Shown one piece after another: positions 5,232 to 63,715 of a DNA stretch of 64,000 bases. Position numbers and translations under genes: made by a program. The notes below the pieces were generated by a model that saw nothing but the letters and a program-made list of their open reading frames with translations, was not told the origin of the DNA and made no database searches. Numbering within the stretch: the first letter of the stretch is position 1; the number at the start of each line of letters is the position of its first letter. The stretch is from Chiloscyllium plagiosum (taxonomy: Eukaryota), in contig NC_057719.1 of NCBI RefSeq assembly GCF_004010195.1, positions 16,479,929 through 16,543,928 on the forward strand, read 5' to 3'.

Positions 5232-5440
5232 CTGGATTAGTGGTGCTGGAAGAGCACAGCAGTTCAGGCAGCATCCAAGGAGCTTCGAAATCGACGTTTC
5301 GGGCAAAAGCCCTTCATCAGGAAGGGCTTTTGCCCGAAACGTCAATTGCAAAGCTTCTTGGATGCTGCCTGAACTGCTGTGCTCTTCCAGCACCACTAAT
5401 CCAGAATCTGGGTTCCAGCATCTGCAGTCATTGTTTTTAC
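5232..5440. mobile_element. Palindromic PLE-derived mini-element with 15-bp TSD, nested in a LINE fragment
   Basis: Inverted arms span 5232-5404. The direct repeat CTTCCCAACCAGTGA lies at 5217-5231 and 5441-5455. A hammerhead motif sits at the inversion centre. Confidence 0.85.
5291..5322 (-). ncRNA. Minimal hammerhead ribozyme motif (intact core, weak stem I)
   Basis: Minus strand reads UC-CUGAUGA-A-GGGC-UUUU-GCCC-GAA-ACGU-C-GA. Confidence 0.65.
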
Positions 5441-5639
5441 CTTCCCAACCAGTGAAAACATCCTTTCTGCATGTAGACTACCCAGCCCTGTTTGAATTTT
5501 AATTATTTCAATTCGAACCACTCTCCTTCCATGAAGATGAATACAGCACCATAATCACAGAGACTGCCATGTGAGTGTTTGGTTAAAGGTAGTCTACTGT
5601 AAAAGATAAGGAACGTGATTCAAACAGGCAGTTGTAGGA

Positions 5640-6070
5640 AAAATTGGGGTGGGTTTGGGATGTGACAACACATTTAAGGAAAGTACTTTGTAAATGAACC
5701 ATGATTGAAAAAATGAAGGGACAGTGGTATGCATTATGAAGAAGCTGGTGAGGACAGCCATTTTGAAAGGATTGGGCATAGTATCTGAGGAGATGGAACT
5801 ACTGTGTGTCAACTGATATAGACATCAGAAATGGAGACTGAGTGGTCAAGGACTCAAGGAGCAAGACATTTCCTTGGATGAGATGAGCTTTGAAAGGATG
5901 TAGGGAGATAAGAGAGACAGTCAGCAAGATGGATATTTGACTTGGTGACAATGGAAAGAGGGGAGAAGCAGCTGAGGCAATTGGAAGGATGCAGGTTCTT
6001 AGCTTGATGATAAAGAAGTCCATAACTTCCTCAACATCATTTGAAATGAAGATCATAGTCGCAGACAAAA
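5640..6070 (-). mobile_element. Old L2-like LINE ORF2 fragment
   Basis: ISSDTMPNPFKMAVLTS resembles L2-type SLSSGxVPxxFKxAxITP. Heavily decayed. Confidence 0.5.
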
Positions 6071-6314
6071 AGGCATTGAAAGGGATGGGTCGTATTGGAG
6101 AAACATTCTACTGAGTCATCAACTGTGCACAAAGAAGAGTTTTGTTTGAGTTATTAGCAATTGTGTTATACTGATGCAGTTTCTGCTGGATATCACTAGC
6201 AGGTGCAATGTAAATATTGAGCTGACTTCATTAAGTGTGTTGCTATTCTTATTCTTGTCCACCAGGGGATGCTAATGTAAAACACACAATCCATCAAAAT
6301 GCTATTTTCAATTA

Positions 6315-6680
6315 TAGAGTCAGGGAACAACCTGGAAACAGACCCTTTGGTCCAACTAGTCCACGCCAACTGTGTTCCTAAATTAACCTAGTCCCACTTG
6401 CCAGCTCCTGCCCATATCCTTCCAAACCTTTCATATTCATGAACTTATCCAAATACCTTTTAAATATTGTAACCATACCCGCATCCACCACTTCCTCAGG
6501 AAGTACATTTCACACACCAACCACACTTTGTGTAGAGAAGTTGCCCCTCACGTCCCTTTTAAAATTAAAAAAAAACCTGATCCTCATCAATAAACGGGAT
6601 ATGGGTGGGTTGCGCTTCGGCGGGTCGGTGTGGACTTGTTGGGCCGAAGGGCCTGTTTCCACACTGAATCTAATCTAAAA
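6315..6680. mobile_element. CR1 3' end (minus, ~6315-6560) plus HE1-type SINE 3' tail (plus, ~6597-6680)
   Basis: Same 3'UTR text as other CR1 copies. The SINE tail is GGGCCGAAGGGCCTGTTTCCACACTG..AATCTAATCTA. Confidence 0.7.
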
Positions 6681-7050
6681 AAAACAATAGTCCCATCAGA
6701 ATACATCCTGTCCATTCCCAATGCTATTAAAAATCAATAAAACCCCCAGCCCAGAACATGAATGGGACATTATAGTTTATTTCTTGTCCTTTGCAAGTAT
6801 TTGGTCTTTTGTCATTTCTCTATAACTTCACTTTTTTTCTATAGAAGTGTTATTTTATCTGTGAGCAAGAAGTATTTGAGGGCATGCCCTTTCAAACCTA
6901 ACTGCCAGGGATTTCCATACTGCTATTCCATTACTAATTATAATCATGGATGATTTCAGAACAGTTTCCAGGCCCCTTCTCTTCTTATACTGTGAGTATT
7001 ACATCGATTAGTTAAACTACAATCAGCTTCCAATACTGCACTACAGGATG

Positions 7051-7210
7051 TACAAAGTTAAAAATCACACAATACCAGGTTATAGTCCAACAGGTCTAAT
7101 TGGAAGCACCAGCTTTCGGAGTGCTGCTCCTTCATCAGGTGGTTGTGGGAGCAATGTTGTGTGATTTTTAACTTTATATGCCCCAGTCCAACACCAGCAT
7201 CTCCAAATCA
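7051..7210 (-). mobile_element. PLE-derived mini-element (GGAGC/GCUCC family) with 13-bp TSD and mutated hammerhead
   Basis: TSD GCA(C/A)TACAGGATG at 7038-7050 and 7211-7223, with internal inverted AAAGTTAAAAATCACAC arms. Minus strand reads CAC-CUGAUGA-A-GGAGC-AGC-ACUCC-GAAAGCU-G; G at the cleavage position is predicted inactive. Confidence 0.8.
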
Positions 7211-8120: not shown

Positions 8121-8374
8121 TTGAAGACTACCATATCCAGCCTCTAGGACACTGAAGCTGAGAATGGTCCACGTTTGAAATTATCTTTTAAAATAGATAT
8201 TTTAGCAAGGCAGACCTGTACTGCCAGGATGGCTATCTTTGTTGAGCTTTTAACATTGTAGGGTTTGTTGCAATGCTAAAAATGTTGTTAAATTCTCAAG
8301 TGTGAACTGGAGATTCAATCAAACTCAGAGAATTGGGCAGAATAACATAAAGAGGCAATACTTTCTTGTAATTA

Positions 8375-8531
8375 TGACTTGGAGGTGCCTGTGTTGGACT
8401 GGGATGGATAAAGTTAAAAATCACACAACACCAGGTGGTTGACAACTACCTGATGAAGGAGCAGCGCTCCGAAAGCTAGTGCTTCCAATTAAACCTGTTG
8501 GATTATAACCTGGTGTTGTGTGATTTTTAAC
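8375..8531 (+). mobile_element. PLE-derived mini-element with 12-bp TSD
   Basis: TSD TTCTTGTAATTA at 8363-8374 and 8532-8543. Inverted arms AGTTAAAAATCACACAACACCAGG / CCTGGTGTTGTGTGATTTTTAACT enclose the ribozyme. Confidence 0.85.
8447..8481 (+). ncRNA. Minimal type-I hammerhead ribozyme motif (intact)
   Basis: UAC-CUGAUGA-A-GGAGC-AGC-GCUCC-GAA-AGCU-A-GUG. Stem I is UAC/GUG, stem II has 5 bp, stem III is palindromic AGCU, and cleavage is predicted after CUA at 8478. Confidence 0.75.
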
Positions 8532-9639
8532 TTCTTGTAATTAGTTCATCTGCGCGGATGTAATTAAGATGAATAAACACTTCAACACCCTGAGCAGTGA
8601 ATTTACCATTTCCCTACGTTCTGTCTGGTTCAGGCCGGGAATCATAGTCTAAAATATTACCATTCCGCCCACTGTTCCCGTGCTGTCCCTTAGCAAACTC
8701 GATGGCAATAGATTGGATCGCTTGCTCCCTTCCTTTCGTCCTGCCTTCCTCATCAAGTGGTTATTCAATTCCCTTCAATCTACTTGGAATGTCGTAATGA
8801 GTGGTTGTGGGGAAAGAAGGGGTCACCTCCTCCTCCTCCCAACCCAGAACCGTCAGATGCAAATAACGTCAGCTCAAATCCTGCCTTGATATCACATTTG
8901 GACCCGCGAATGCGGATTTCCCCCATTGGTTTTCCATCAAGCTCCCTCGAAGTAAGACAATATTGAAGCATATTTCGGTGGCGCATGAACAGAGGAATGC
9001 TATCCCTTAATTTGAAATTCTACAATGTAGACACTGATGGTTACACGTCTTGAATGGAAGGGAACCCGCCCGAATTCTTGGGGGGGTGGGGGGGAGAATC
9101 AAATTTTGGACATAAACCTGTGACAACCCCGACAGAGCAGCAAAAGTTGAAACAAATCATCCCCAGGCAACAGTTGGAAGGTGAAATAGTGAGACCGGAC
9201 TTCCTACCCTCCCCCATTCTTGTTCAAAGGTTTCAAAAATGTCAAGTCGAAACAGCAAAGTACACCGCGGAATGTTGTCGGATCTAGGGGGCGGGGGAAG
9301 TGGAGAGTCCGGTTTCTGTTCACACCATTTCCTTTCCTGTGACTGAAGGAAACACGACTCACGAGGTGAACAATATCCCGCTGAAAAGAGAGAGCGAGAG
9401 AGAGGGGGAGAAAGAGAGGCTAGTCGTGTTAATTACAGCCTCTTACCTCCCGCAGAGTTTCAGTCTCTTCCCAAAGACATGGAATAATCATTGAACTATG
9501 ACCTCGAACTTTACAAACGAGTTGATCTTGGTAAATCAGATTTGTTTTTTGTTATTAATTTGTGGGATTTGGGTATCGCTGGCTATCATTTAGTGTCCGT
9601 CCCTAGTTGCCCTTGAGAAGCTGCGTTCTTGAACCGTAA

Positions 9640-10790
9640 TCACCTGACGAAGGAGCAGTGTACTTCCAAATAAACCTTTTGGATTATAACCTGGTGTGGT
9701 CTGATGTTTAACTTTGTCCTCCCAGTCCAACAACGGCACCTCCACATCATCATCTCGACCAGACACACAATCGTTCTGAAGAAAGGTCACAGGACCCGAA
9801 ACTCTTTCTCTCCACAGATAGAGTTTTTTTCAGGTCTGAAGAAGGTCTATATCTCTCTCCACACATGTCGCCAGACCTGCTGAGTTCCTTCAGCATTCTT
9901 TTTTCCAAGTTCAAAAATGTACTTTATTCATACATGATCTCTAACTAAAGACAACAAGTCCACAGCAGGAACAAAAACAGAAACTGCTAGGAAAACTCAG
10001 CAGGTCACTGGACTGGAAAGGTTAATGCTGTTTTCTCTCCAGACCCGCAGAGTTTTCCCAGCAATTTTTTTGTCTGATTTCCGACATCCGTAGTTCTTTT
10101 TTAACAACAGTTCTGCAGAAAATACAATGGAATTTTGACATTTTTCCTTCAAGCTTTAATCTCACTGCATCAAAAAGAGACATTTTCTAAACGCGAAAGA
10201 AAATTATTTACATTCCCCTTAGGGCTACCAGGGGATGTAATTGCTGGTCTTATAACACCATTTGATTCAGGAGCAAAATTAGGCCATTTGGCCCATCAAG
10301 TATAATTGCAACATTTAAAAGGCAGCAGGATTGGTAAATGAATAGGAAGGGTTTGGAGGGATATGGCAAAAATGAGGACTGCAGATGTTGGAAATCAGAG
10401 TCTAGATTAGAGTGGTGCTGGAAAAGCACAGCATCCCAGGAGCAGGAAAATCGACGTTTTGGGCAAAAGCCCTTCATCAGGATATGGGCCGAATGCTGGC
10501 AGTTGGAACTAGATTGGGTTGGGATGTCTGGACGAGTTGGACCGAAGGGTCTGCTTCCGTGCTGTATGTCTCTATGACTCTATAACCCTCCTCATATTTT
10601 TCGAAAAACGGAAAGAACTGTGGATGCTGTAAATCGGAAACAAAAACAGAACTGAGGAAGGGCCGCTCGCTCCGAAACTTAACTCTGATTTGTCCCTACA
10701 GATGCTGCCTGACCTGCTTTGCTCTTCCAGCACCACTCTAATCTAGACTCTGGTTTCCACAATCTGCAGTCCTTAAATTTACATAGTCTT
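9640..10790. mobile_element. Cluster of decayed PLE-derived mini-elements and a CR1 tail
   Basis: Partial HHR cores at ~9644 (CTGACGAAGGAGC), 9776 (CTGAAGAAAGGTC..GACCCGAAAC), ~10452-10480 minus (GAAA mutated to AAAA; element ~10367-10479 between GGATATGG repeats inside a CR1 3'UTR) and 10652 (CTGAGGAAGG..CCGAAAC). Confidence 0.7.
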
Positions 10791-10879: not shown

Positions 10880-12717
<1,838 letters not shown>

Positions 12718-12719
12718 TG

Positions 12720-13060: not shown

Positions 13061-13119
13061 CAACATCCCACATGCGAAATAGAAATGTACATATTAAAAT
13101 TGCCAAAAAAAATTGCCCA

Positions 13120-13290
13120 AAGAACCGCGGATGCTGGAAATCAGAAATCAGCAGGTCTGGCTGCATCTGTGGAGAGAAAACAGATGCAACATTTCAGGTC
13201 CAGTGACCCTTCTTCAGAAGAAATGTTAACACTGCATCCTGTCCACATATGCTGCCAAACCTGAGTTTCTCCACCAATTTCTAATTTTGT
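13120..13290. mobile_element. Decayed palindromic PLE mini-element (GGGUC/GACCY family)
   Basis: Minus strand reads CUGAAGA-A-GGGUC-ACUG-GACCU-GAAAUGUU at ~13188-13217, between imperfect inverted arms. Confidence 0.65.
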
Positions 13291-13338
13291 TGTTAGTTGT
13301 CAGTGATGCTCTGTGGTGAGCCCACCTCACACCTCACA

Positions 13339-13462
13339 CTGAAGAAGGGCTTATGCCCGAAACGTCGATTCTCCTGCTCCTTGGATGCTGCCTGACCTGC
13401 TGCGCTTTTCCAGCAACACATTTTCAGCTCTGATCTCCAGCATCTGCAGCCCTCACTTTCTC
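13339..13462 (+). mobile_element. PLE-derived mini-element beginning at an intact hammerhead core (13339-13366)
   Basis: CTGAAGA-A-GGGC-TTAT-GCCC-GAAACGTC followed by the family tail GATTCTCCTGCTCC...CAGCATCTGCAGCCCTCACTTTCTC. There is no cis stem I. Confidence 0.8.
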
Positions 13463-16400
13463 CACAAGGTCAGCCTGGTAGACCTCTTTGAATATGAGTT
13501 CCCTGATTGGGGCTGTTAATCTGCTCTGATCAGGGAGCCTACAGGAGTGTCAGACATCAGGATTAGTCTGAGAGCTGGCTCTGAAGGAGTTGGATCTGTG
13601 TCAAGGACTCGCCATGTGTAAATCAAGGGTGACTTAGTGATGGGTGCATAGGAGGCTGAGGATGACCTTTATAGATATTTAAAAATCATAAGGGGCAGAA
13701 ATAAGGTGAATAGCTAAGATCTTTCACTCAGGGTCAGAGAGTCCACAACCAGAGGGTTTAAGGTGAGAGGAGAAAGATTCAAAAGGGGCCTGACGGGAGC
13801 TGAGAGCCTCTGTGGAGTTATTTCAATGGCGATGAGAGGAAAGCACATCCTGAAGAAACTCATTTGCAGCAGTCATCTTTCAGTTGGGGTAAGCATTGCT
13901 TGCATCATGCTGTTATTTTAGTGATTGATGGAGAAAATGCTACAAGGTCTACCCCAGGTTGCCATTTATCTAGATGTTGTGCTAATAACAGGGAAGCACT
14001 TAGAAAACTTGGTCACAGTCCTCAGACATTTCTCCCAGGCGGGTGTATGCCTTAAAAGGGAAAAATGCGTTTGCCAGACACTCCAAGTGACCCACTAGGG
14101 TTACAGAATCGACAAAACCAGGCTACAGCTGTTGGAAGGTAAAGTGAGGGCTATCAAAAGTTCCTCGGCTCCCACGTCTGTACCAGAGCTTAGGGTTATT
14201 CCTTGCACGGTTAAATTATTATGGAGAGTTCATACATAACCTGGCCTTCATTCTGGTAGCTTTGCATCATATCTTAAAGAAGGGTCAGCTGTGGAAGTGG
14301 TTGAATAGCCAAGCCATAGTTTCAGGGAAGTGAAGAAACAGCTGTCGTCCTCTAATGTGTTGGCACACTGTGATCCCAAACGCAATCTGATATTGACATG
14401 GGATGCCTCCCCATACATTTCTGAGGTATTATAAGACCATAGGTAAAAGTGAGGACTGCAGATGCTGGAAATCAGAGCCGAGATTAGAGTGGTGCTGGAA
14501 AAGCCCAGCAGGTCAGGCAGCATCCAAGGAGTAGGAAAATTGATGTTTCGGGCAAAAGCCCTTCATCAGGAGCCCAATGGAGAGGAATAAGCCCTTCTTC
14601 AGGAATGCCCGAAACGTCGATTCTCCTGTTCCCTGGATGCTGCCTGACCTGCTGCGCTTTTCCAGCAACACATTTCCAGCTCTGATCTCCAGCATCTGCA
14701 GACCTCACTTTCTCCTCAATGGAGAGGAATGTCCAATAACGTATGCATCCAGGACTTTGGCAATGCAGTGCGTAAATACATCCAGGTAGAGAAAGAAGGT
14801 TTGGTGGACATATTTGGAGACAGGAGGTTCCACCAACATCTGTATGGGTGTAGATTTGTAATATTAATGGGACCTAACTGGGGTTTGTAGTCCTTGATAA
14901 GGACAAGGCAGTGCTGCCCTTAGTGTCAGAATAAATTCAGTAATTGTATCCCATATTTCCTCGTCAAAAAGGTGTTCCCTCTAAAACTAAGTGCATATAA
15001 TTACAAGTTGGAACACCATCTGGGAGGCCAAGCACCAAATGCAGATGCGTTCACCCACCTCCCACTGGCTCCCAGTGGCAGATACATCGCCAGTGGGACC
15101 ACTATTGGAAGGGTCCGTAAGGCTTTTAAATTTTCTGGACACATTTCCAGTCATAGTAGAGGACAGCATATTATTATGGGGAGCAAGACTGATTGCCCAG
15201 AGTAAAGCTACCGGCTGAACTCCACCAGGGTCATCCAGGGGTCTCCAGAATGCAGATGTTGGCAAGAGGTTATGTCAGGTAGCAAGAATTGGATGAAGAC
15301 ATAGCCATGTTGCTGGGGCAGTGCCCAGAGGGCCAATAAGGACAAAAATTGCATCCAGCAGCTCCCCCACATTCATTAGAATGGCTGGGTAAATCTGGAC
15401 TTGGTTACATGTCAACTGTGCAGGTAACTTCATGTGTTCAATGTTCTTAGTCATTGTGCATGTTCACTCAAAGTGGTTAGATGTGCATAGAGTTCATTCA
15501 TCAATGAATAATAAAAAACTGCACACATTTCAAAGTGTTGGTCACAGACAATGGGCCATCATTTACCCCAGCAGTGAATTTGAGTATTTCCGAAAGTCAA
15601 ATGGCATTCAACATATAAGGAAGCTTCAAACCATCTGTCATCCAATGGTGTGGCAGAAACAGCAGACCAAACTTTGATGGTAGGCATAAAGAAACAGTCT
15701 ACAGCTTCACCAGATACAAAACACTCTCAATTCCTATTTGATTATAGGAGCCACTTGCAACTATAGAGACAGCTCCAACGGTGCTGTTAATGGGGAGAAG
15801 ACTCCATACTTGGTTAAAATCTGATCTTCTCAGAATGAGAGAAGGGTGAAACAGCACCAAGAACGCAAAACTCCACTAAGCAAGTGACTTAGTTTACTTC
15901 AGGGGACGAAGTTTAGTGTAGGAACCATAGGAATGGCTCTGTATGGGTAAGAGGCATGGTCAATGTGAGGTCAGGTCTAGTGATGTATAAGATTTGGGTA
16001 GGAGTGATGGACCTGAACATGTGCATGGACATATGCAAGCTGCAAACTTGCAAATGGGGCTGGAGCAAAAACATGCCTAGCTTTTTGGAATGGTCGGGCA
16101 GACTCTGTGTGTTCTCCCTCTCAACCAATTGTTGTTGAGACCTCGGAAACTGAGATGGACTTGGTGGATTTTCCTCCTCGATATGTTTGCTGCTTGAAAC
16201 AGCGAATTAATTTCTTCTGTGAAGCTCCGGGCACAAGAGGCAACTATCTGAAGTAAAGTTGGAGGAACCTGACCCGGTGCTAGAGTGCCCCAGGGGAGCT
16301 CCAAGAAAAAGAATTAGCCTATGACCTCAGATTCAGAAGAGAAGATATGGAGTGATTGTAATGAGGTCAGTCAGGTGTGTCTCATAGCATATAAATTCCC

Positions 16401-21045: not shown

Positions 21046-22320
21046 GGTGATACCCTTTATTGTAACATGCATTCAATATAAAATACAGTGAAACGTGTGT
21101 ACTGTCGCTCGTACATAAATGCCATTCACAGAATTAAATAAAGAAAGATAACTTAAAGAAAGGCCAACTTTTCCTTCTCTGCTGCCACAGCATACCGCCG
21201 CCAGAGTCCTGCTTCGGGCTTCCCAGCCCATGCCATGCTGGAGGGAAAGTGTCCCACTCCAGACTACACCAGCCCACACCATGCTACAGGGAGGGTGCCC
21301 CACTCCAGGCTACACCAGCCCACACCATGCTGCAGGGAGAGTGAGCCGCTCTGGGCTACACCAGCCCACACCATGCTGCAGGGAGACTGTCCCATTTTGG
21401 GCTACACCAGCCCACACCATGCTGCAGGGAGGGTGCCCCACTCCAGGCTACACCAGCCCACACCATGCTGCAGGGAGAGTGAGCCGCTCTGGGCTACACC
21501 AGCCCACATCATGCTGCAGGGAGGGTGCCCCACTCCAGGCTACACCAGCCCACACCATGCTGCAGGGAGAGTGAGCCGCTCTGGGCTACACCAGCCCACA
21601 CCATGCTGCAGGGAGGCTGTTCCACTCCAGACTACACCAGCCCACACCATGCTGCAGGGAGGGTGCCCCACTCCAGACTACACCAGCCCACACCAGGCTG
21701 CAGGGAGACTGTCCCGTTCTGGGCTACACCAGCCCACACCATGCTGCAGGGAGGCTGTCCCACTCCAGACTACACCAGCCCACACCATGCTGCAGGGAGG
21801 GTGCCCCACTCCAGGCTACATCAGCCCACACCATGCTGCAGGGAGAGTGAGCCGCTCTGGGCTACACCAGCCCACACCATGTTGCAGGGAGACTGTCCCG
21901 TTCTGGGCTACACCAGCCCACACCATGCTGCAGGGAAAGTGTCCCAGCCCATGCCACGCCACAGAGAGGGTACCTCACTCCTGGCTTCCCAGCCCACGCT
22001 GTGTCACAAATTGTCCTGCTCCGGGCTATACCAGCCCATGGCATGCCGCTGTCGGGGATGTACATCATGTGAAAGCAAGACTACTGCTCCAGGCTTCATG
22101 GGCTGACTGCCTGACCGTCCCTGTAGCCATGCTGCCTCTGAAGATCCGATCACTGCTCTGGAGCACATTGAGGCCATCTCCTGCCAGAGAGGTGGCTCTC
22201 TTTATCAGGTAACTTTGAGGAAAAAAGAGAAGGTAGAAGGAAAAAGGCAAAAAAGAAAGATGCAGACGATGAGGACAAATCCAGGCATAGGAGCCCAAAC
22301 GCTGCCTACTCTACCACCGC
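21046..22320 (-). mobile_element. Non-autonomous insertion (Rex-like 3' tail) carrying an internal minisatellite
   Basis: The host LINE appears to read through as ...GAATGTC|AAGGGG... when the insert is removed. The minus-strand end TTTCACTGTA...ATGTTACAATAAA resembles the Rex-like tail at ~12720. Confidence 0.55.
21222..21955. repeat. 46-bp minisatellite, ~16 units with variant repeats
   Basis: Near-constant CTACACCAGCCCACACCATGCTGCAGGGAG starts at 21264, 21310, 21356 ... 21908 (exact 46-bp period, 15 starts), each followed by one of four 16-bp variants. Confidence 0.95.
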
Positions 22321-24075: not shown

Positions 24076-24485
24076 TTTTGGATGTAAGTTTGCTCGCTGA
24101 GCTTGAAGTTTAATTTCCAGACGTTTCGTCACCCTACTAGGTAACATCTTCAGTGGGCCTCAGGCGAAGTACTGCTGAAAATTCCTGCTTTCTTTTTATA
24201 TGTTTGGGTTTCTTTGGGTTGGTGATGTCATTTCCTGTGGTGAAGTCAATTCCTGCCCCTTTTCTTAGGAGGGTGGTAGATGGGGTCTAACTTGACCCAA
24301 CCGGAACTCTATTAACAAACACATTGAGTTAGACCCCTTCTAGCACCCCCTAAGAAAAGGAACAGAAAGTGACTTCCCCACAGGAAATATCACCACAGGA
24401 AATGACATCACTAACCCAAAGAAACCCAAACATATAAATAGAAAGCAGGAAATTTCAGCAGTGCTTCACCTGAGGCCCACTGAAG
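24076..24485. mobile_element. Penelope-like element 3' end in inverted arrangement
   Basis: Arms ~24148-24292 and ~24328-24485 are inverted. The centre encodes NRNSINKHIELDP, resembling the extreme C-terminus of PLE GIY-YIG ORFs. A ribozyme lies in the left arm. Confidence 0.75.
24117..24156 (-). ncRNA. Minimal type-I hammerhead ribozyme motif (intact)
   Basis: Minus strand reads CCA-CUGAAGA-U-GUUACC-UAGUAG-GGUGAC-GAA-ACGU-C-UGG. Stem I is CCA/UGG, stem II has 6 bp, and GUC cleavage is predicted between 24120 and 24119. Confidence 0.75.
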
Positions 24486-24544
24486 TTGGTGATGGTGGCA
24501 TCTGGGACATTGTCTATCAGGTATGACTCTGTGATATAACTCTG

Positions 24545-24704
24545 TCAACATGGAGGAGAACCGATTCATCAGGTGAGGGAGGACTGTATGTAATAATCAG
24601 CAGGAGATATCCTTACCCATTTTGGATGTAAGTTTGCTCGCTGAGCTTGAAGTTTCCTTTCCAGACATTTCGTCACCCTACTAGGTAACATCTTCAGTGG
24701 GCCT
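24545..24704. repeat. 160-bp direct duplicate of 24001-24160 (includes a second HHR copy)
   Basis: Near-identical text with 3 substitutions seen; one changes ACGU to AUGU in stem III. Confidence 0.9.
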
Positions 24705-25294: not shown

Positions 25295-25430
25295 AAACAA
25301 AGGACTGTGGATGCTGGAAATCTGAAACAAAAACAGAAATTGCTGGAGAAGCTCAGTAGGTCTGTCAGTATCTATGGAGAGAAAGCAGAGGTAATGCTTT
25401 GAGATCAATAACCCTTCTTCAGAACTGAAG
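25295..25430 (-). mobile_element. Decayed PLE mini-element (similar relics at ~190-230, ~27620-27716, ~31705-31795, ~60295-60390)
   Basis: AAACAGAAATTGCTGGAGAAGCTCAG...CCCTTCTTCAGAACTG family text with a degenerate HHR on the minus strand. Confidence 0.6.
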
Positions 25431-43394: not shown

Positions 43395-44735
43395 ATAGAG
43401 TCCATACAGTTTAGAAAGGGCCCTTTGGCCCATCGAGTCAACACCGATACATGAGAAACAACTGACCTTCAACCTAATCCCATTTACATGCCCATCGCCT
43501 TGAATGTTATTGATGTCTCAGCTAAATATTTCTTAAAGGATGTGAGGCAACTCTCCTCTACCACCCTCTTAGGCAGTGCACTACAGTCTGTCACCACCCT
43601 GTGGGTAAAAAGGCTTTTCCTCACATTCCCCCTAAATTTCTTGCCCTTCACTTCGAACACATGTCCCCTTGTGCCTGACCCTTCAACTAAGGTGAACAGT
43701 TACTCCTTATTCACTCTGTTCCTGGCCCTCATAAACTCTTACACCTCAATCAGATCATCCCTCTGTCTTCTCTGCTCCAATGAAAACAGCCCAAGCCCAT
43801 CCAACCTTTCTTCATCCCTTAAATATTCTTTCCCAGACAGTATCCTGGTGAATCCTCTGCACCCGCTCCAGGGCAATCACATCCTGTAATGTGGCAACCA
43901 GAACTGCAAACAACACACTAGCTGTGGTCTTTATCTAATGCCTCAATTGATAGTGTCCCATATGCCTTTTTCACCATCCTATCAACATGCCCTTCTGCCT
44001 TCAGAGGTCTATGGACAAATACACCAAGGTCCCTCTGCACCACATGCCCTGATGTTTACTAAAGACTTTCTGGTGAAATTACTCCTTTCAAAGTGTATCA
44101 CCTCATATTTTTCAGGGTTAAATTCCATTTGCCACTTATGCCCATTTGACAACCTTGTTTATATCATCATGTAGTCTAAGACACTCCACCTCACTGATCA
44201 ATCTTTGTGTCATCCACAAATTTACCAATCCAATCCCCTACCTTGGTCATCTATGTTATTTATATAAATGATCAATAAAAGGGAACGCAGCACAGATCTC
44301 TGTGATATGTCACTAGACACTGGCTTTCACTCATTAAAGTAGCCTTATGTTATCACCCTCTGTCTCCTACAATGGAGCCAATTTTCAATCAACCTTATCA
44401 AATTACCTTGTATCCCATGTGCATTTACATTCTTCATAAGTCTCCGATGTGGGACTTTGTCAAAGGCTTTGTTGAAGTCCCTGTTAAACTTAAATCAACT
44501 GCATTACCCTCCTCTAAATACCTGATCACCTGGTCTCATTCCTGAAGAAGGGCTCATGCCCGAAACGTCGATTCTCCTGCTCCTTGGATGCTGCCTGACC
44601 TGCTGCGCTTTTCCAGCAACACATTTTCAGCACCAGTTCAATCAAACGTGTTAAGCATGACCTTCCTCTGACAAAGCAATGCTAACTATCCCTGATCAAA
44701 CATTGTCTCTCCAAATGAAGATAGATACTAGCCTT
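43395..44735 (-). mobile_element. Older CR1-like LINE fragment (different subfamily)
   Basis: Decayed RT text (minus: GACTTCAACAAAGCCTTTGACAAAGTCCCACAT = DFNKAFDKVPH) and a CR1-like 3'UTR. Confidence 0.75.
44535..44631 (+). mobile_element. PLE mini-element with intact hammerhead core (44542-44569), sense to CCDC85C
   Basis: AUUC-CUGAAGA-A-GGGC-UCAU-GCCC-GAA-ACGU-C-GAUU, then a family tail nearly identical to 13367-13430. Confidence 0.8.
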
Positions 44736-51355: not shown

Positions 51356-51484
51356 CTAGGAGAAAGTGAACACTGCAGATGCTGGAGATCAGAGTCGAAG
51401 AGTGTGGTGCTGGAAATACACAGCCAGTCATGCAGTATCCGAGGAGCAGGAGAATTGATGTTTTGGACATAAGTCCTTTCATTC
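51356..51484 (-). mobile_element. PLE mini-element with 13-bp TSD, degenerate HHR
   Basis: CTAATAA(G/A)TGTCT at 51343-51355 and 51485-51497. The family end GAGAAAGTGA..ACTGCAGATGCTGGAGATCAGAG is present. Confidence 0.75.
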
Positions 51485-51855: not shown

Positions 51856-52502
51856 CCCATGGTTTGGGATACAGTGGGGTTGTGAATTCTAGTTGAGTGA
51901 ATTGCTAAACCTTTGACCTAATGATATCTAATCAACAAATCGTAGGCCATGTGGACAAAAGACAGTGCTCCCAGAGGTGAGCTGAGAATGACTGGTATTG
52001 TGCCTACCTTGAAGCCAGAATGTCTGGGTTCAAGTTTGCCTGCCCCAGGGGTGCGTTGTAACACATTTGAATGGATTCTGTTAAAGGAGGTGGATCATAA
52101 AATGTCCAAACAGGTTGATTAAACATAACTATAGCTCTGGGATTCTAAGTTAGTTGTTGTTTGACCTGCAGAAAGCAGGTGTCTGGACTGAGCCTGTCTT
52201 GAAGCCACTGTGTGTGTTTCTCTGGGTTATTGTCATTCATGAATTTTTTTTCTTAATACTGCTAGATTTACCACAACTTTGTACTTATAACCAGGTAATC
52301 TCCCCTTGTTCTGTCTTCCTAATTTCATGAGTGTTTTTCTTTTGTGTGTGTATGTGGAATAGTAAAGTAATTCCACCCCCTCAACTGCATGGTCTGTTAA
52401 TAAACACGGTTTTTGAATTAACCTCAAAGGATTTTGTTGTGGAATCTGAAAACCAGAGTTGGTAATACCCTTTGGCCTAACTCAAGTAGTTTGCAATTTA
52501 AG

Positions 52503-52923
52503 AATTATTAATTTTAATTGAATTTCCACCAACTGTCATCAAAGTCCCTAAGGCATTAGTCTGGGCCTCTGGATCACTGTCACCGTTACAACGACATCTT
52601 CCAAGTATCTGGACTTAATGCGCCAAAATTTATAAGTAAGAGACAAGTAAAAGGGAAAGGAATAAATTGAGTAAAGTCTCACTGTCTGTCTTGGGTTTAA
52701 GCAGGAGAAAGCAGTCATAATTTAAATTCAACCCCATTCCTCCTTTGTTTGTAACATCTCATTTTAAAAATCCCCCAAAATAATGAGAAAAAAAAAATTT
52801 TGGTGCATTAAGTCCAAATACTTGGAGGATGATGTTGTGGCAGTGATGGTGATCCAGAGGCCCAGACTAATGCCTTAGGGACTTTGATGGCAGCTGGTGG
52901 AAATTAAATTAAAACTAATAATT
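52503..52923. repeat. ~130-bp inverted repeat (52503-52631 / 52795-52923) with ~165-bp spacer
   Basis: For example CATCAAAGTCCCTAAGGCATTAGTCTGGGCCTCTGGATCAC versus GTGATCCAGAGGCCCAGACTAATGCCTTAGGGACTTTGATG. The right arm continues into a Deu-type SINE to ~53185. Confidence 0.88.
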
Positions 52924-55900
52924 TTTAAATTTCAAACTACTTTCCATGATGGTGGGCATAAACTGACTGTACTGATTGTTGTAAAATCTGATCTCGTAAA
53001 CCAATGCACTTTTCAGAGAAGGAAATCTGCAGACCTCACTCAGTTTGTCTACACTTGGCTTTGCCCTGGGGTAATGTAATTGATTCTTGAGTAACCTCTG
53101 AAACAGCCTCACATTTACCCAGTTCAAGGGCATTATGGGATGTGCAACAAATGCCGACGAGTCCCATATCTCATGTAGGAATAAACTTTTTTTAAAAATC
53201 TATCTCGATGCAATGATATGCAGTGTGATCACAGCAGCACAGGAATGTTGGATTTAGGCTATTTGCTTTCACGTGGATTTATAACTCTGAATGATTTTAA
53301 TGGGTAATATCCATTCAGTCATTCAGTTACTCACTCAGTCATTCAGCTTGATGACATCCCCCTCTTGTAATGCATGTTGGTATTTTATTTCTTTCTCAGT
53401 ATGTAGCCCAAATATGCTAGTGTGGTTATAATTTTCTTTGCTGTGGTGAGGAAGAATGTTTGGTGTTGGACCACCATGTTGTAATTGTTACAATTGCTAT
53501 GTCTCCCTCCATGCATTTGTTATATTTGGTGCCTTCGTGGTGGACAGGAAACAGTGGAAAAAACCTGGAAACATTTATGTCTTTGCTGAATTTTGGAAGC
53601 GTTGAAGAATTGGTGCTCTGTACTTCACAATACTAAGATGTCAACAAAATGGGCAGCAGTGCAATCATTTGCAATTTCCAAAGAGTTCTAAAGCACTGAA
53701 ACAACTACTGATATTTATCTGGTCCATTTAAATCATAGAAAACTCCCCAATACACTTGCCAGGACTAAAATCAGGACTAATTTGTCAGCAGCTGAAAAAT
53801 GGATAAGTTGGAATGAGTAACCAAAGATTGATTCAAGCAGGGCTTTGAAGAAGGGAATCCAAAGCTTTCTGTCCAGGTGCAGAGGCAAAAATAAGTGCCG
53901 CACACCCACAATTTGGAGCATAGTTCTCAAAGAGCTGTCATACTCCACTAAGTTACAGAGATAGAAATGGGTTAGACCATGGAGCTGGGGTCTGTGTTTT
54001 GGTAGTTTAAACATGAATTTCATAAGTGATGCTGCACACAACTTAGCATTTTGGATGGAATCAATATTTACTCAAGCACCACTGGATTGTTTCAACTGCA
54101 GTAATATTCAAAAATCATGCTGTGCAGCTCAGTGATTCTATGCTGAAATATATCTCGCCTCACTTTCCCCATCCTGTCTCTTATGTCTGATCTTTTTATG
54201 GTAGCTTCTGGTTTGCTGTACATCATGACATCAGGCTTACTGTTTGGAAGGTAATTTGAATTGCTTTCAGTAATAAAAGTAGTTAGTTGATCCATTAAGG
54301 TTAATTGCCGACTGTGACAGCCAACTGTGCCTTGTCTATCATGTTTTGCTTCCCAGAAAATGTTGGAGTTAAAGCAAGGTTTCCTTTTTGAATGTGGAAA
54401 TTTATGGATGAGATGGTGGCCATCGTGAGTATAAGTGTCTTTGTACTGAGAAAGAAAGAGAGTGATTGCTGTTTGTACAGACAGCAGAGTATGGTTGCTA
54501 TATACTTGTCATTGATAACCGAATTGGGCATCTATCAAACTAAATAGCCTGTAGTCAGAGTCTAGCTGCAATAAATGTCAAAACAACTGCTTAAATCTTC
54601 CAAGACCTTAATTAGAAGAATGAGCTATCTGTGCCTGACAGTGAGTGGGTTTTCTTCATTTATCCTTTGTACCTGTGTGGAATGGCTTATCAAGCCCATG
54701 AATACAAGTTCCATTGGAATTGAATGGTTATAGGCATCAAATCCAAGGCTTAAGGAAGGAGTCATGCCATCACAGCAGTTTCTCTCTTTTCTTCTTAGTA
54801 GGAAATAGAAATCCCTGTTTCCTTACCATTTGGAGGGTGACATCGCGCCTTGATCTGTGCTTGAAATGAAGGAATGTTAGATGATTACAACCCACAACTT
54901 GAGGCTTGATATAAATTTGGGGATTCAGCATGACAAAGCCAGATTGACCAGTTATTCTTGCATTGCTGTTGGCCAAATTAGCTGCCATATGTTTGACGTG
55001 GTGACTCAATTACAAAAGTACTTTGTTAGCTGTGAAGTGTTTCCAGCTGTGTTAGGTGGTACTTAAATGTAAATCTTCTTCATATGTTAATCTCCTTGTT
55101 GTAAAATTAGGTACAGGATAGCCGAGTTATTCATACTGTAGGATAGGAATGATGTGGTCCTCCCTCTCGGCACATGGTGGCTAAGTGGTTAGTACTTCTG
55201 CCTCACAGCACCAGGACTCTGTTCAATTCCAGCCTTGGGTGACTGTGTGAAGTTTGATACTCTCCCTGTGTTTATGTGGGTTTGCACTGGATGCTTCAGT
55301 TCCCTCCCACAGTCCAAAGATATGTGGGTTAAGTAGATTGGCTAAATGCAATGGGGATAGGATGGGGCAGTGTGGATTTGATTGGTCAAATGCCCTCTTT
55401 CTGCACTGTAGGGACTCTAATCTAACTCTAAATAGACTTGCTTAAGTCTGTTTTATACTTATTACCATTAGTGAGGTTTTGTTAGTATAGTTCTGAGGCT
55501 AATTGCAAACCTATTGAAACAGATTGCACCTGGAATGTAAGCTGGCTTTTTCATTCAATTCATTTTATCTAAACATGATACTACTGTAAAAAGACAATAA
55601 AAATAAGTACTCTCAAATGACTTGAATGCTCTTTGTGTTACGTTTTCTTTAGAAGAGAATTGTCTGGAGATGCAAGGGGCTACTGTAGATTTGTTGACCA
55701 TCTTCATTCTTGTGTGGTTACACTTTTACACCATTTGCTGCCTTTAGGGAATCTGTGTTGGGCTTTGGTATCAGGTTTATCTGCTAAAAAAAAAACTCTT
55801 TGGATAAGATTCAAAACCCAGAGTAGCAATGTCTGGATTTCAAAGATATCTGTTGATGTCCTTTGACATTACAGTACTCAGGAGAGGTGTGTGTTGAGAT

Positions 55901-55964: not shown

Positions 55965-57685
55965 TATGGGGGAGATACTAAATGAGTATTTTTCATCAAT
56001 GTTTACTGTGGAGAAGGATATGGAAGCTAGAGAACCTGAGGAAATAAATAGCAATATCTTGAAAAATGTTCATATTACAGAGGAGGATATGCTGGACGGC
56101 CTAAAACACATAAAGGTGGATAGATTCCCGGTACCTGGTCAGCTGCACGCTAGCACTCTGTGGAAAACTAAGGAAGTGATTGCTGGGCCCCTTGCTGAGA
56201 TATCTGTGAAATCGATAGCCAGAGGTGAGATGTTGGAAGGATGGAGGTTGGCTAATTTGGTGCCACTATCTTAGAAAGATGGTAAGGAAAGCCAGGAAAC
56301 TATATGTCAGGTGAGCCTGACATTGTTGGTGGGCAAGTTGTTGAAGGGAATCTTGAGGAACAGGAGTTACATGCATTTCAAAAGGCAAGGACTGATTAGG
56401 GATAGTCAACATGGCTCCATGCACAGGAAATCATGTCTCACAAACTTAATTGAGGTTTTTTGAAGAAGTAACGAAGAGGATTGATGAGGGCAGAGACTAC
56501 ATAGACTCCAGTAAGACGTTCGACAGGGTTATGCATGGTAGACGGGTTAGCACAGTTAGATCACATGGAATGCAGGGAAAACTAGCCATTTAGATACAGA
56601 ACAGGCTTGAAGGTAGGAGACAGAATGCCCTGGTGGAGAGTTGCTTTTCAGACTGGAGGCCTGTAACCAGGAGTGTGCCACAAGGTTTGGTGTTTGGTCC
56701 ACTGCTTTTTGTCATTTATATAAATGATTTGGATGTGAACATAGGAGGCATAGTTAGTAAGTTTGCAGATGACACCAAAATTGGAGGTGTAATGGACAGC
56801 GAAGAAGGTTACCTCAAAATACAACGGGACCTTGATCAGATGGGCCAATGGGCCAAGGATGGGCAGATGGAGTTTAATTCATATAAATGGAGGTGCTGTA
56901 TTTTGGAAAGGCAAATCAGGGCATGACTTATTAACTTAGTGGTAAGGTTCTGGGGAGTGTTGTTGAACATAGAGATGTTGGAGTGCAGGTTCATAGTTCA
57001 TTGAAAGTAGAGTCGCAGCCAGATTGGATAGTGAAGAAGGCATTTCGTATGCTTGCCTTTATTGGTCTGTGCATTGAGTATAGGAGTTGGAAAGCCATGT
57101 TTTGCTGTACAGGATGTTGGCTAGCCCGCTTTTGGAATACTGCATTCAATTCTGGTCTCCCTGTTTTAAGAAGGATGTTGTGAAACTTGAAGGGGTTCAG
57201 AAAAGATTGATAAAGATGTTGCCAGGGTTGGAGGGTTTGAGCTATAGGGAGCGGCTGAGTAGGCTGGAGCTATTTTCCCTGGAGAGTCGGAGGCTGAGGG
57301 GTGACCTGATATGAGTTTATAAAATGATGAGGAGCGTAGATAGGGTGAATAGCCAAGGTCTTTTCCCCGGTGTAGCGGAGTCCGAGAGTGGAGGGCAAAG
57401 GTTTAAGGTGAGAGGGGAAAGATTTAAAAGGGATCTACGGGGAAACGTCTTCAGGCAGATGGTGGTGCATTTATGGAATGAACTGCCAGAGGAAATGTGG
57501 CAACTGATACAATTACATCATTTAAAAGACATTTGGATGTGTATATGAATAGGAAGGGTTTAGAGGATTTGGGCCAAATGCTGGAAAATGGGATGAGATT
57601 AATTTAGGATATCTGATCGCCATGGACAAGTTGGACCAAAGGGTCTGGTTCCATGCTATATAGCTCTATGACACTACGACTCTGT
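55965..57685 (+). mobile_element. CR1/HER1-type LINE, 5'-truncated (1.7 kb)
   Basis: EILNEYFSSMFT, WRLANLVPL, SVPQGLVFGPLLFVIYINDL, SKFADDTKIGG, PLLEYCIQFWSP and RRLRGDLI, then the 3'UTR. Confidence 0.92.
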
Positions 57686-60600
57686 AGAGATTTGTGTTTA
57701 ACCATTTGAGGCTTACAGTCTCTGAGAATGACATTTTCCACTTCTTTGTTATTGTTCAGATATTTGTGACGCTTCCAGTTGTGATAATGAAAGAACTTTC
57801 ATTTATGTATCACATTCACAGGAAATATGTAGTCATTGTCGTAATACAGTCAAAAGCTGCAACTAGTTAGTAGCCTGATGCATCATCATGCTCGTGTACA
57901 AGTCTTTGGAATACCAAGAGATTATAATAGACACTTCTACAAATCTTCCTTTGTCATTTGTGGGAGACTCTCATCAAATTCAGTGATACAATAGAAACTC
58001 TGTATAAGGTTAAGAGTTGGGAATTATCATGCCAGCCATCATCTCATTGAATGGTGGAACAGACTTGATGGGCTGAATGCCTATTTTATAAAAGTACTTT
58101 GGTCTTCAGTTTTTGTTGAAGATATTAAGCTAAAGTTGTTTTGGTTCTTTGTTTTGATCCTTGGGAGCTGTGGTTTCTGTCACCCATGCCAATTTTAAAA
58201 AAAATAGACAGTGCAAATATTGACCACACGGATCGAAATTGATGGAAAAGGGGCATACTATGTTAAAATAGCTTGTGGGTGCAATAGGTTGCCATATGCT
58301 TTTTGTACGTCCATTATTTTGTAACGCGGGTTTGAAACCCAACACATCAGACGGTGAAATTTAACCTTAAATAAAAATCTGGCAATTGAAAACCTTTCTA
58401 AATGCAACCATATAAACATTGTTGATTGCTGTAAATGTCCATCTAGATCATTCATGTTCTTTAGGAAAGGAAATCTGTCATCGATGCCTTCTCTGACCTA
58501 TATGTGACTCCAGACCCACAGCAATGTAGTTGACTTTTACCTGTCCTCCTGAAATCACCTAACAAGCCATTCACTTCAAGGGCAGTTAAGGAGGAGCCAC
58601 AACTGTTTGCCCAGCAGTGACTACCACATTCTATGAATAACTTTTTAAAAATCCTGCTTGGGAGTTGATGTGAGACAAAGTTTCCTAAAAATTGATGATC
58701 GAGAGAAGGTGTGTTTGTTTGTATCAGTAAAATTAATAAGGGATTGGGTCCAAAACTACACAGCCTGATGGTAAAACGTTGGCTGCTGCTATTTATTTTA
58801 ATTGGGACCACAGAGCCAGGAATCTGAGCAATGTAACTTTTCTAGAACGTTTTGCACTGTCTGCATGTTCCAGGGCACTGTACGGGCAGTCTGTACTTTG
58901 TGAAACATGGTCGCTATTGTAGTACATTATAGTCAGTTTGTGAAAAACAAGATCACACAATAAGCAAACGTTTCTGCGATGAAGCTGATAAGAAACATGC
59001 CTACTCCCTCATCAGATGACAAGTGTACCTTTTATCTTAGTTCTTCCTTTTAATTGGAGTTGATAGTTTCAAATTAACAGCAAAAACTGAGACTGAGTCA
59101 GTATGTTTTGCCATTGCAACCTTGTAATGCCTTCCAAGCAGATGAAGAGAAGTATTGGGCAGGTTCTTGGAACAGAAATACTACCTTGCATCTGGACATG
59201 CGTCTGGGATCAGGCCTGTTCATTCTCCCCCACCCCAGTTGGCCTGTTTATGCTTGTATATTTATTTAGTGCACTTACAAGATGCTCCAGCCTCTCTGAA
59301 ATTTTGGTGTCTGTGTGGTGCCGTGTAAAAGCCACAGATCTGCAGCGTGAGGTTTATTTGATGCCTTGATATTGTGCCACCACCCAAGAAAGGAATTTTT
59401 CCATGTAGATTCCAGTATGTCTTTGGAACACAAAGGAATCTTGTATGTGGCCACTGTCTGTGTCGCTCAAGACATTCGGTCCAGTGCAGCTCAAAGCCTG
59501 TACAGACGCCAACCTTTTTGGGGCCCAACCATTAACTTACAGTTACCTACCTGATATCAACCTGATCTGTGATATTTTCTCGAACGTGAAGGTAAATAGA
59601 TGGCAGCAATTATGTACTATTATGGAGTCTAAATCAATAATAGATCTCTTGCAAGCCTGCTTCAAATGCATTCTACAGTTTTATAGTTTTGTTTTCTGGG
59701 GTGAAGCATTTGACATAAAGAAGGTTTTTCTGAAAGGATGGTAACTAAAATACAGAAAAGCCATGGGAGCTTTGTGTTACATGATCCCACAGCTTGACGG
59801 AAAATATTTCTGATTTTTGGTTCACTTGAGCAAGAATCGGAAGCTCTTTCATTAACTGCAATTGCAAAATACAAAGTTCATTGCCAAAGTGTGGATCATG
59901 ACAGCTGACCTCAGTGCAGAGGAGGATCAACAGAAAACATGCTAATTTGTCCAGCTTCCCGAGAAGAATTGGGTTCAGAAAAATTCTGGAGTTTCGCAAG
60001 TGTCTTTGCAAAGTCGTGCTTGCAAGCATAAAGTACTGTCATTGTTGTAAACATGTATATGGCTGGTTGGAGCAAACGACTGTGTCCAATCGAAATCTGG
60101 TTGAAGGTGGTGAAATGGCAAATCCTGAAAAGTGGAGCTAATTCAAATGGGGTAACAACACTCTTACCAGGCAAGTCACTGATTCATTCAACTATTGTGA
60201 GAAGTTGATTGCTGATCCTTAGGAAATGAATTGGTTCTTGGCCTGCAACAACAGAACTCAAGAAAATTACTGAGATTGCTGGAAATCTGTATTATAAGCA
60301 GAAACTGCTGGAGATACTCAGCAGATATGACAGCATCTGTGGAGAGAGAATGAGTTAACTTTTTGAATCCAAAATGATTTCTGAGCTGAAAAAAGAGGTG
60401 TCAAAATGATGGGTTTCGTACTGTAGAGAACGTTGGGGAGGAGCTGTGGAGCAGCAGGGAAGTTTAGAGAGTGAGGGAGATTACAAGTGTCACAGCACAA
60501 GGCAAAGGAATTGGGAATGGTTGAAGAGAAGCCTATAAGTAGGTCTCAATGACAGAATATTGGGCAGCTTGCTCAAAGCAAAACCAGACGCTAGGCAGGG

Positions 60601-62176: not shown

Positions 62177-62270
62177 TGAGTTGAAACTTTATTGCTGGAA
62201 CAGCACAGTAGGTCAGGCAGCATCCAGGGAACAGGAGATTCGACGTTTCGGGCACAGGCCCTTCTTCAGG
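62177..62270 (-). mobile_element. PLE mini-element with 14-bp TSD
   Basis: CAGGATATCTCTTT at 62163-62176 and 62267-62280; the second copy overlaps the ribozyme core. Confidence 0.82.
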
Positions 62271-62277
62271 ATATCTC
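62235..62277 (-). ncRNA. Minimal hammerhead ribozyme motif (intact; extended stem I possible)
   Basis: Minus strand reads GAGAU-A-UC-CUGAAGA-A-GGGC-CUGU-GCCC-GAA-ACGU-C-GA-AUCUC. Confidence 0.72.
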
Positions 62278-62845
62278 TTTGCTTTGTGAATAACCTGAAG
62301 CCTCCATGCAGATTGTGGCTTGTATTACCTATCCTCTCGCTATAACCTTTTGGGGGTGGGGAACTTGCCACACTGAATGGTGACCTGGCCAGAAACTGAG
62401 ACGTCTGGTCTTCTCTCCAGTTCCCGAAAGGGGTGGAATTGTAACCAGGGCCTAGACCATAAGGTGCTGTCCAACACAGCATCATGATCTGAAAAAGATC
62501 TTGCCCCACTGCCTCATTGTGTGTACCTTCTTCCACTCTTACCTCACTGAGCTTGAGTGAATTGACTTGCTACTTGCATTCGGTGATAAACTGCATACCG
62601 AGAATTTTCATTCCTTAATGGCAAGTTGATTGATCGTCATGTTTCTGAATGCCATTAGTTTGCTAAGGACCCAGACAGTGTGCTGTGATGACATTCGTTG
62701 GAGACCAGATTGTTAATGATGACTGTGTTGGCATTGTGCCCATTTTCTTGAGCAATGCAAAATGTTAAGTGCCTGTGCAAATCACAACTGTTTTGCTGGG
62801 TAAAAGGAACCACAGGCTTTTAAAGCAACGTGGCCATGTTATTTC

Positions 62846-63068
62846 TGTGAAATTTATTTGGTTACATTCTAATCCTGAATTACTCACATTTTTACGGATT
62901 TTGAGTCCCTTTTGAAGTGTGTGTACAACTGATTGGCAGTCTTTTGCCTTTGATTATTTGCGTGAAATCTGTATATTTGCATTTTAATCCTGAATTACTC
63001 ACATTTTTACGGATTTTGAGTCTCTTTTGAAGTGTGCGTACAACTGATTAGCAGCCTTTTACCTTCGA
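62846..63068. repeat. Two-copy tandem duplication, period 115 bp
   Basis: TAATCCTGAATTACTCACATTTTTACGGATTTTGAGTC... at 62870 and 62985. Confidence 0.9.
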
Positions 63069-63299
63069 CTGAAACGTAGAATGGTGAGGGTAGGTATGGA
63101 GAGGATGGTTTCTCTTCTGGGAGAATTGAGAACGAGGGGTCTTTTTTTTAATTAAGGGGGTGCCCGTTTGAAACAGATTAGGCAAAATATTTCCTTGGAG
63201 CTTTAAGAGTCTTTGCAATACTCTTCCAGAAAAGACACTGGAAGCAGTGTCTGTGAATAAGGCAAAAGTGGTTCAATTTATTAAGTAAGGGATTTTGAA

Positions 63300-63715
63300 T
63301 GATTAGAGTCGAAAAGTGTGAGGCTGGAAAAGCAGAGCAGGCCAAGCAGCACCAAGGAGCAGGAGCGTAGATGTTTCGAGCATAAGCTCTCTATCAGGAA
63401 TGTGGAAGGGGAGGGGAGAGCTGAGAGATAAATAGGGGGTGGGGGTGGGTAGGTGGGATGGCAATAGGTGGATACAGGTACGAGGTGATTGTGATAGGTT
63501 GGTGGGGAGGTAGATGGGCAAGTAGGCCAGGTCAAGAGGGCGGTGCCGAGTTGGAGGGTTGGATCTGAGATGAGGTGGTGGGGTGGGAAAATTTGGAAAC
63601 TTGTGAAATGAGCATTGACGTTGTGTGGTTGTAGTGTCCTGAGGCGAAAGACGAGGTGTTCTTCCTCCAGTCGTCGGGTGGCTTGGATTTGGCAGTGTCG
63701 ATATATGACCACCAC
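63300..63715 (-). mobile_element. Penelope-like element 3' end: GIY-YIG ORF C-terminus, 3'UTR and hammerhead-bearing terminus
   Basis: HCQIQATRRLEEEHLVFRLRTLQPHNVNAHFTSF resembles the PLE endonuclease end (R..E...IFxLGTLxPxGxN). A pyrimidine-rich UTR follows, then CUGAUAGA-GAGC-UUAU-GCUC-GAAACAUC at ~63370-63397 and the same tail as the mini-elements. Confidence 0.8.

Follow-up and report, generated by a model that had tools for sequence, protein, structure and literature searches.

Introduction

Penelope-like elements (PLEs) are the closest described relatives of the ribozyme-bearing insertions analyzed here, which lie in a 64,000-nucleotide stretch of the shark Chiloscyllium plagiosum (assembly GCF_004010195.1, contig NC_057719.1, positions 16,479,929–16,543,928 of the forward strand; hereafter the window). 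The PLE hammerheads described previously (PMC4209133; this and all other papers are cited from the accessible parts of their text) share with the shark copies the catalytic core, an extra base between positions 9 and 10.1, the G10.1–C11.1 pair, a palindromic 15.2–16.2 segment and a short helix I. Most of them were single motifs, “probably related to truncated PLEs”, and pairs on opposite strands were also seen. In its accessible text, that work names no shark genome. It proposes cleavage and circularisation, whereas the copies studied here stem from uncleaved RNA.

The Poseidon element of Anolis carolinensis (PAc; PMC11167929) offers a second comparison. Its reverse transcription starts at two internal sites with the tail between them, both target strands are nicked and extended, and ribozyme cleavage is dispensable for insertion. 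Two internal start sites for the reverse transcriptase (RT) bound the tail in the shark elements as well. The PAc open reading frame (ORF) begins inside the ribozyme, whereas the ATG of our subfamily A1 lies ∼160 nt downstream, past the tail; the account of PAc, in its accessible parts, reports no 5′ pile-up, cap-derived G or start site at the ribozyme. Shark families A and B resemble Neptune-clade PLEs in having a zinc-finger-like linker, a feature assigned to Neptune and Nematis (PMC8557442). The non-LTR retrozymes (LTR, long terminal repeat; 10.64898/2026.07.22.740005) also carry type-I hammerheads, are related to the pseudo-LTRs (pLTRs) of PLEs and occur in one chondrichthyan. By definition their units, each with its own ribozyme, are arrayed in tandem, whereas the shark copies lie scattered, alone or inverted, and match the termini of coding elements exactly.

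Earlier work, according to the sections consulted (PMC4209133, PMC8557442, PMC3846280), has already described single truncated copies, tails, inverted copies and the presence of minimal hammerheads in the repeats of PLEs, and the shark elements are new members of known clades. No account of these families, or of a cap-derived G in PLEs, was found in a literature search that left out most subscription papers, supplements, Repbase and Dfam. In LTR elements, minus-strand strong-stop DNA is made by priming near the 5′ end of the RNA, run-off at the cap and a jump. The process considered here works alike without a tRNA primer, an integrase or an LTR, and does not make the shark elements members of that class; priming would be from nicked target DNA, so that the short product itself is integrated. 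We propose that the insertions are hammerhead-plus-tail ends of PLEs and that most family A stubs, and many of family B, are probably products of internally primed reverse transcription running off the capped 5′ end of uncleaved RNA.

Results

The window was scanned for CTGANGA, one extra base, a stem II of at least 4 pairs and GAAA. Ten intact minimal hammerhead cores were found, whereas 200 dinucleotide shuffles gave 0.15 on average and never more than 2; an eleventh, at 10652, has a stem II of 3 pairs. The six cores listed by an initial annotation of this DNA, at 5293–5320 (−), 8450–8478 (+), 13339–13366 (+), 24120–24153 (−), 44542–44569 (+) and 62242–62269 (−), were verified at the same coordinates and on the same strands, and its classification as minimal type-I hammerheads of PLEs holds, with the CUGANGA and GAAA core, a paired stem II and the extra base before G10.1. 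Among the stem II variants that it named, GGGC/GCCC, GGAGC/GCUCC, GGGUC/GACCU and GUUACC/GGUGAC are present in the window, whereas GAGC/GCUC is intact at a neighboring locus and survives in the window in decayed form only (51360–51480 and 63301–63402). Its estimate of more than a dozen insertions is likewise borne out: BLAST with natural copies gave 35 pieces, which were grouped by hand into ∼22 insertion sites of ∼50–700 bp with intact or decayed copies.

Applied to 264 kb that comprise the window and its surroundings and were not selected by ribozyme pattern, the same scan returned 31 cores, ∼1 per 8 kb. The 30 family-assigned cores among them were used to check features that lie outside the scan requirements. 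Stem III, which had been described as palindromic, is an exact ACGU or AGCU in 24 of the 30, and pairs 1 and 2 of helix I are present in 24 and 27, respectively, with sequences that differ by family. The structure is therefore preserved across families, as had been claimed, with the palindromic stem III and helix I kept in family-specific sequences. No hammerhead match was returned by Rfam in the window at E ≤ 1, so its models miss a motif of this frequency in the region sampled; five weak Rfam miRNA matches were rejected as hairpin artefacts.

The copies are abundant throughout the 3.56 Gb genome. Searches used exact single patterns, which makes the counts lower bounds, and reversed-pattern controls gave 0. 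One exact 32-mer of the A1 core occurs 37,922 times and the A1 tail pattern 77,175 times; the family B and family C core patterns occur 4,611 and 240 times. For comparison, ∼4,000 hammerhead motifs in coelacanth and 9,000 in Xenopus were called remarkable (PMC4209133), although the descriptors differ from the single 32-mer used here.

Sequence comparison identifies families A, B and C as the terminal pieces, ribozyme plus tail, of protein-coding PLEs. Long family A copies have a 3′ untranslated region (UTR) and a GIY-YIG C terminus upstream of the ribozyme, and the family A tail continues into an ORF start. One locus (L085) has, in order, RT motifs, the GIY-YIG endonuclease, the UTR and the A1 ribozyme, and two others (L299 and L300) are near-full-length A elements with inverted copies. 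The RVT_1 match of L300 (E 5e-06) falls under the Pfam cut-off; its protein is 46% identical to a GIY-YIG-bearing PLE-type protein. Pfam did not recognize the GIY-YIG pieces or the N-terminal part of the RT, and pairwise comparison was used in their place. By this means the family A proteins match PLE-type RT/GIY-YIG proteins, the closest named homologues of the element proteins being from bamboo sharks, and the N-terminal RT part of the A element has 23,195 candidates in the genome. The elements have a KPADKG motif and a single ORF with RT and C-terminal GIY-YIG. The copies that were read carry stops, deletions or assembly gaps, with no intact full-length ORF among them. In one copy (L028:828–1409) the endonuclease C terminus forms about four in-frame repeats.

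Family C terminates a second PLE: its upstream region codes for a GIY-YIG end (only the endonuclease was traced), with coding remnants in the window at 24299–24391. The family B ribozyme lies ∼550 bp after the stop codon of a third PLE. The sequence upstream shows 84% identity to a protein whose alignment takes in the PLE thumb, the zinc-finger linker and GIY-YIG; for family B the trace covers the endonuclease end only. Compared directly, the family B piece and one PLE protein (P0112) gave no significant match (E 0.16), and the link was made through another (P0123); tblastn with eight PLE proteins gave no match upstream of 79 family B contexts, and no context of family D or E was picked up by the patterns used. 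At three loci (L181, L189 and L190) the ∼550-bp family B 3′ UTR has a CA-rich microsatellite directly after the stop codon. The family B endonuclease end is also contained in predicted bamboo-shark gene models (P0122 and P0127–P0129, among them a PPP1R12A-like isoform and a G-protein-coupled receptor domain protein), as a result of exonisation or annotation error. The zinc-finger-like linker is C-x4-C-x2-C-like in A and in the protein that matches B. Motifs and linker tentatively place A and B with the Neptune clade and C with the Penelope/Poseidon clade. We take C to be of the Penelope/Poseidon type from its C-terminal motif. Family D has an A-type tail, and the coding link covers families A, B and C only.

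The 5′ ends of the short copies are not spread along the element. The A1 sample consisted of the first 100 A1 matches listed. When it was anchored on the core, 67 of 99 copies start ≤6 nt upstream of the core, 7 start 8–12 nt upstream and 25 start ≥25 nt upstream. Anchoring on the tail gave the same picture: 19 of 27 copies (30 taken, 3 dropped for N) start between +9 and −6, 2 near +30 and 6 far upstream, so that the 43 nt from the anchor to +9 contain just 2 of these ends and the following 16 nt contain 19. This distribution makes the stop a step with no gradient. Within 501 kb not selected for A cores, 49 of 91 tails start between −12 and +10 and 13 further up; 21 start inside the tail, about half of them of family D, whose ribozyme is unlike the references. 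A single tail of the 91 starts at the cleavage site, and the templates are therefore uncleaved RNA. The same count, together with the 2 of 27 tail-anchored copies near it, rules out the cleavage site as the 5′ end, and a splice acceptor was rejected for lack of an AG at this place in long copies. Of 25 long A1 copies, 24 have TTTATC at a fixed place, ∼31 nt upstream of the pile-up. The family B pile-up lies 6–9 nt upstream of the core, ∼32 nt behind TATAAAT.

An extra G marks the same point. In long A1 copies ATTC follows a C. Over the whole genome, not counting junctions with a G two bases back, there are 2,803 H-G-ATTC junctions against 1,682 H-A/T-ATTC, where composition predicts ∼0.36 G per A+T. 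T accounts for 44 of the first 100 A/T matches listed (hand count), which puts G:T at ∼3.8 at the pile-up; one base further in, the first 100 matches listed hold 10 G and 33 T (hand count). The 100-copy A1 sample agrees, with G in 13 of 18 copies at the pile-up point and, over the three positions that follow, in 11 of 37 (p 0.004). The upstream sequences of 30 G loci are unrelated, save for one duplicated pair. These loci are therefore independent events, and a subfamily with a natural G is ruled out. In family B, ∼200 A-G junctions stand against ∼81 A-A/T junctions, estimates extrapolated from the first 100 matches listed for each, of which 79 and 15 qualified. At the 5′ junctions of full-length LINE-1 elements (long interspersed element, LINE), an extra G has been read as the cap (PMC11702581, from its accessible text). 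That two unrelated families each have a cap-like G at a fixed position suggests a template that was sense, capped and uncleaved, and we infer that transcription starts at the pile-up and that the G is the copied cap.

Several observations weigh against this reading. The TATA-like motif of A1 is weak, and the A1 pile-up coincides with the edge of helix I. The family B pile-up is broader and weaker, with only 27 of 51 copies short, and its G excess has no neighbor-position control. In family C the pile-up is slight: short copies make up about 7 of 30, and 2 of them lie near the start predicted from the TATA box. In most solo insertions the G coincides with the base that closes the target duplication or inverted arm, which makes it a junction preference, and it is clearly untemplated only in a minority of junctions. 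A G in that position is what a cDNA with an extra terminal C would choose. A1 copies that start one base inside number 6,033 and exceed those with the G junction; the ends are therefore frayed. A single-cell poly(A) run gave 1,729 reads on both strands with no concentrated start, from a library unsuited to 5′ ends; across two raw RNA runs and two contig sets no start sites were seen, one run being without reads. In the available description of Drosophila virilis Penelope (PMC2377424, PMC4209133), transcription starts 46 bp ahead of an intron whose end is at helix I, from a promoter without a TATA box, so the layout proposed here is not universal.

In an unlikely alternative, the pile-up is a structural or protein-bound stop, where RT on read-through RNA comes to a halt as it reaches the ribozyme's 5′ edge. 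The G would then come from C added without a template at the stall or, for family A, from template switching to the cleaved RNA, which begins with G-A-U-U-C at its 5′ end. The position of the A1 pile-up agrees with a stall, the first five letters of the cleavage product are those of the G junction, and the PAc protein is described in the available text as binding near the ribozyme and aiding its cleavage (PMC11167929); the failure to see an RNA start in reads from a library unsuited to 5′ ends is also compatible with it. Family B argues the other way. Its copies pile up ∼5 nt past a 3-bp helix I, at TATA spacing, and have the G though the family B cleavage product is without such homology. Family C piles up little despite its stronger stem II.

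The 3′ ends of A1 copies fall at two sites, +85 to +99 from the core in 52 of 100 and +122 to +129 in 38 of 100; these sites are ∼35 bp apart and delimit the PLE tail. Flanking repeats of 8–16 nt, taken as target duplications, are found in 50 of 72 short copies; after trimming, 27 remain against 0.78 in shuffled pairings. Fold-backs combine one short and one long arm in 35 of 38 cases, some pairs being counted twice, once per arm. A pLTR, a 30–40 bp tail, inverted copies and target duplications are thus all present.

The initial annotation had taken the insertions for dedicated non-autonomous families, retrozyme- or SINE-like (short interspersed element, SINE) and mobilised in trans. This claim does not stand, as the same ribozyme and tail terminate coding elements. 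An origin from short elements with their own RNAs of 95–130 nt, moved in trans, is very improbable, for all that the uniform short length, the target duplications and the very high copy number would suit it, that such an RNA, if capped, would leave a G too, and that non-autonomous PLE derivatives are known from what could be consulted (10.64898/2026.07.22.740005; PMC8557442). When 73 short and 25 long A1 copies were compared (2 of the sample dropped for N), they had common haplotypes, a common variant spectrum and the same two 3′ ends. Variants private to the short copies were not found in this comparison; 1 of 39 variant sites reached p 0.035, which misaligned ends caused. In 20 of 30 loci with an ORF start, the sequence breaks off at a point that varies between 178 and ∼435 nt in and resumes at the ribozyme edge. 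The joints of these internally deleted tandems differ from copy to copy, and there is therefore no master short element. The stubs are without an upstream TATA-like motif. ARAGORN found no tRNA-derived head, a weak test for decayed heads. No head-to-tail array of ribozyme units was found in the window (no genome-wide search for arrays was made), and sampled A1 copies are solo, inverted or joined to a UTR.

Since copies are single, or head-to-head on opposite strands, they are without a same-strand partner for dimer cleavage. Monomeric minimal hammerheads did not cleave in the experiments described in the accessible text of PMC4209133. Co-folding of four copies was uninformative in that no clean catalytic dimer emerged; the fold-backs form long hairpins. 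As most stubs lack a same-strand partner and fold-backs are long hairpins, little self-cleavage is expected from either.

Random 5′ truncation of the products of target-primed reverse transcription, or antisense self-priming of fold-backs (PMC3846280, as far as consulted), with no special stop, is scarcely credible for families A and B: PLE insertions are known as heavily 5′ truncated (PMC8557442, PMC4209133, in their accessible parts), family C agrees with random truncation and some copies end inside the tail, but the step in the 5′ end distribution contradicts it and the G excess is tied to position in the genome-wide counts, being lost one base further in.

Run-off at the cap would probably generate the classes of copy as follows. 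The transcript would start, capped, at the first strand of the ribozyme, just before the core. An RT dimer, primed from staggered nicks, would begin at the two tail sites, and reverse transcription would run off the cap after ∼95 or 131 nt to leave a strong-stop-like cDNA. Joined to the target, this cDNA would give a solo stub; joined to a further cDNA that had been primed at the other site from the opposite nick, it would give a fold-back with a short and a long arm; and a jump to another point of the element RNA would give a partial tandem. The long upstream part seen in a quarter of the A1 copies would reflect priming at the 3′ repeat of read-through RNA, with random truncation. Ribozyme cleavage would play no part in making these copies.

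The insertions in the window are as follows. Solo stubs of A1 lie at 13339–13466 (+), from the core to the second tail end, and at 44537–44631 (+), reaching from the pile-up point as far as the first tail end, with the core at 44542–44569. An A3 solo stub (62179–62271, −; core 62242–62269) has a 14-bp target duplication. Another A1 stub (14587–14718, +) has a 21-bp inverted head and a 13-bp flanking repeat (14575–14587/14717–14729). Family A2 is represented by stubs at 10365–10482 (−), with an 8-bp flanking repeat, and 14446–14571 (−; core 14542–14569), and by a head-to-head fold-back at 5223–5442 with one short and one long arm, a core on the minus strand at 5293–5320 and a 13-bp target duplication. 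Family B fold-backs occupy 7046–7210 (core − at 7110–7138; 9-bp target duplication) and 8374–8533 (core + at 8450–8478; 12-bp target duplication); an arm of the latter begins at the family B pile-up point, with a G preceding it. Four family B pieces make up a composite at 40662–40968, and decayed family B and D stubs cluster at 9660–10100. Family D further provides a D-like stub with a weak stem II (10652–10782, +), a fold-back with a decayed stem III (13110–13291, core − at 13188–13217) and decayed stubs at 25277–25428 (−) and 27615–27716 (−), the last with an 8-bp flanking repeat. A decayed stub of family E, which is related to A, lies at 51360–51480 (−).

Two sites retain coding sequence. 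The long A-related copy at 63301–63706 (−) has GIY-YIG C-terminal codons (63590–63706), a 3′ UTR, a decayed ribozyme and a tail, and is the link to the coding element inside the window. A family C inverted pair (24079–24488) has a core on the minus strand at 24120–24153, and its plus-strand arm has the coding remnant, with a TATA box and the last codons of the GIY-YIG ORF (24299–24391). A second family C core and tail (24620–24702, −) lies within a 160-bp direct duplicate (24001–24160/24545–24704, 98% identical) of flank, tail and core. This duplicate, a local duplication or an assembly artefact, places two same-strand ribozymes 544 bp apart, the second with a stem III change.

Other features of the window include the first coding exon of a CCDC85-family gene at 11803–12518 (+; Pfam PF10226, E 2e-91); stubs sit upstream of this exon and downstream of it, in an apparent intron. 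A tandem repeat with a 46-bp unit (15.7 copies, 85% matches) spans 21223–21946. An inverted repeat at 52484–52942, with 148-nt arms that are 89% complementary and 163 nt apart, has the shape of a miniature inverted-repeat transposable element and no relation to the ribozyme families. Members of a dispersed repeat family of several hundred bp occur in both orientations at 3605–4892, 27007–27387, 34910–37459, 42009–42641 and 56392–57697; these are presumably 3′ parts of CR1-like LINEs.

Discussion

The regeneration of promoter repeats in PLE partial tandems has been said to have “no obvious mechanism” (PMC2377424), and head-to-head inversions elsewhere have been interpreted as antisense self-priming (PMC3846280), both in the parts of these papers that were available. 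We raise, as a tentative possibility that goes beyond run-off itself, that Neptune-type Penelope elements replicate through an obligatory strong-stop, with internal priming ∼100–130 nt downstream, run-off at the cap and a required jump. If this is true, failed jumps would account for tens to hundreds of thousands of stubs, paired products would be the head-to-head inversions, and successful jumps would yield the partial tandem, or pLTR.

The stubs described here call for caution before such copies are annotated as SINEs or as active ribozymes. The genome of this shark keeps tens of thousands of near-identical junctions that mark where reverse transcription stopped, and their signature makes pLTR formation testable, including as a prediction for the PAc in vitro system.

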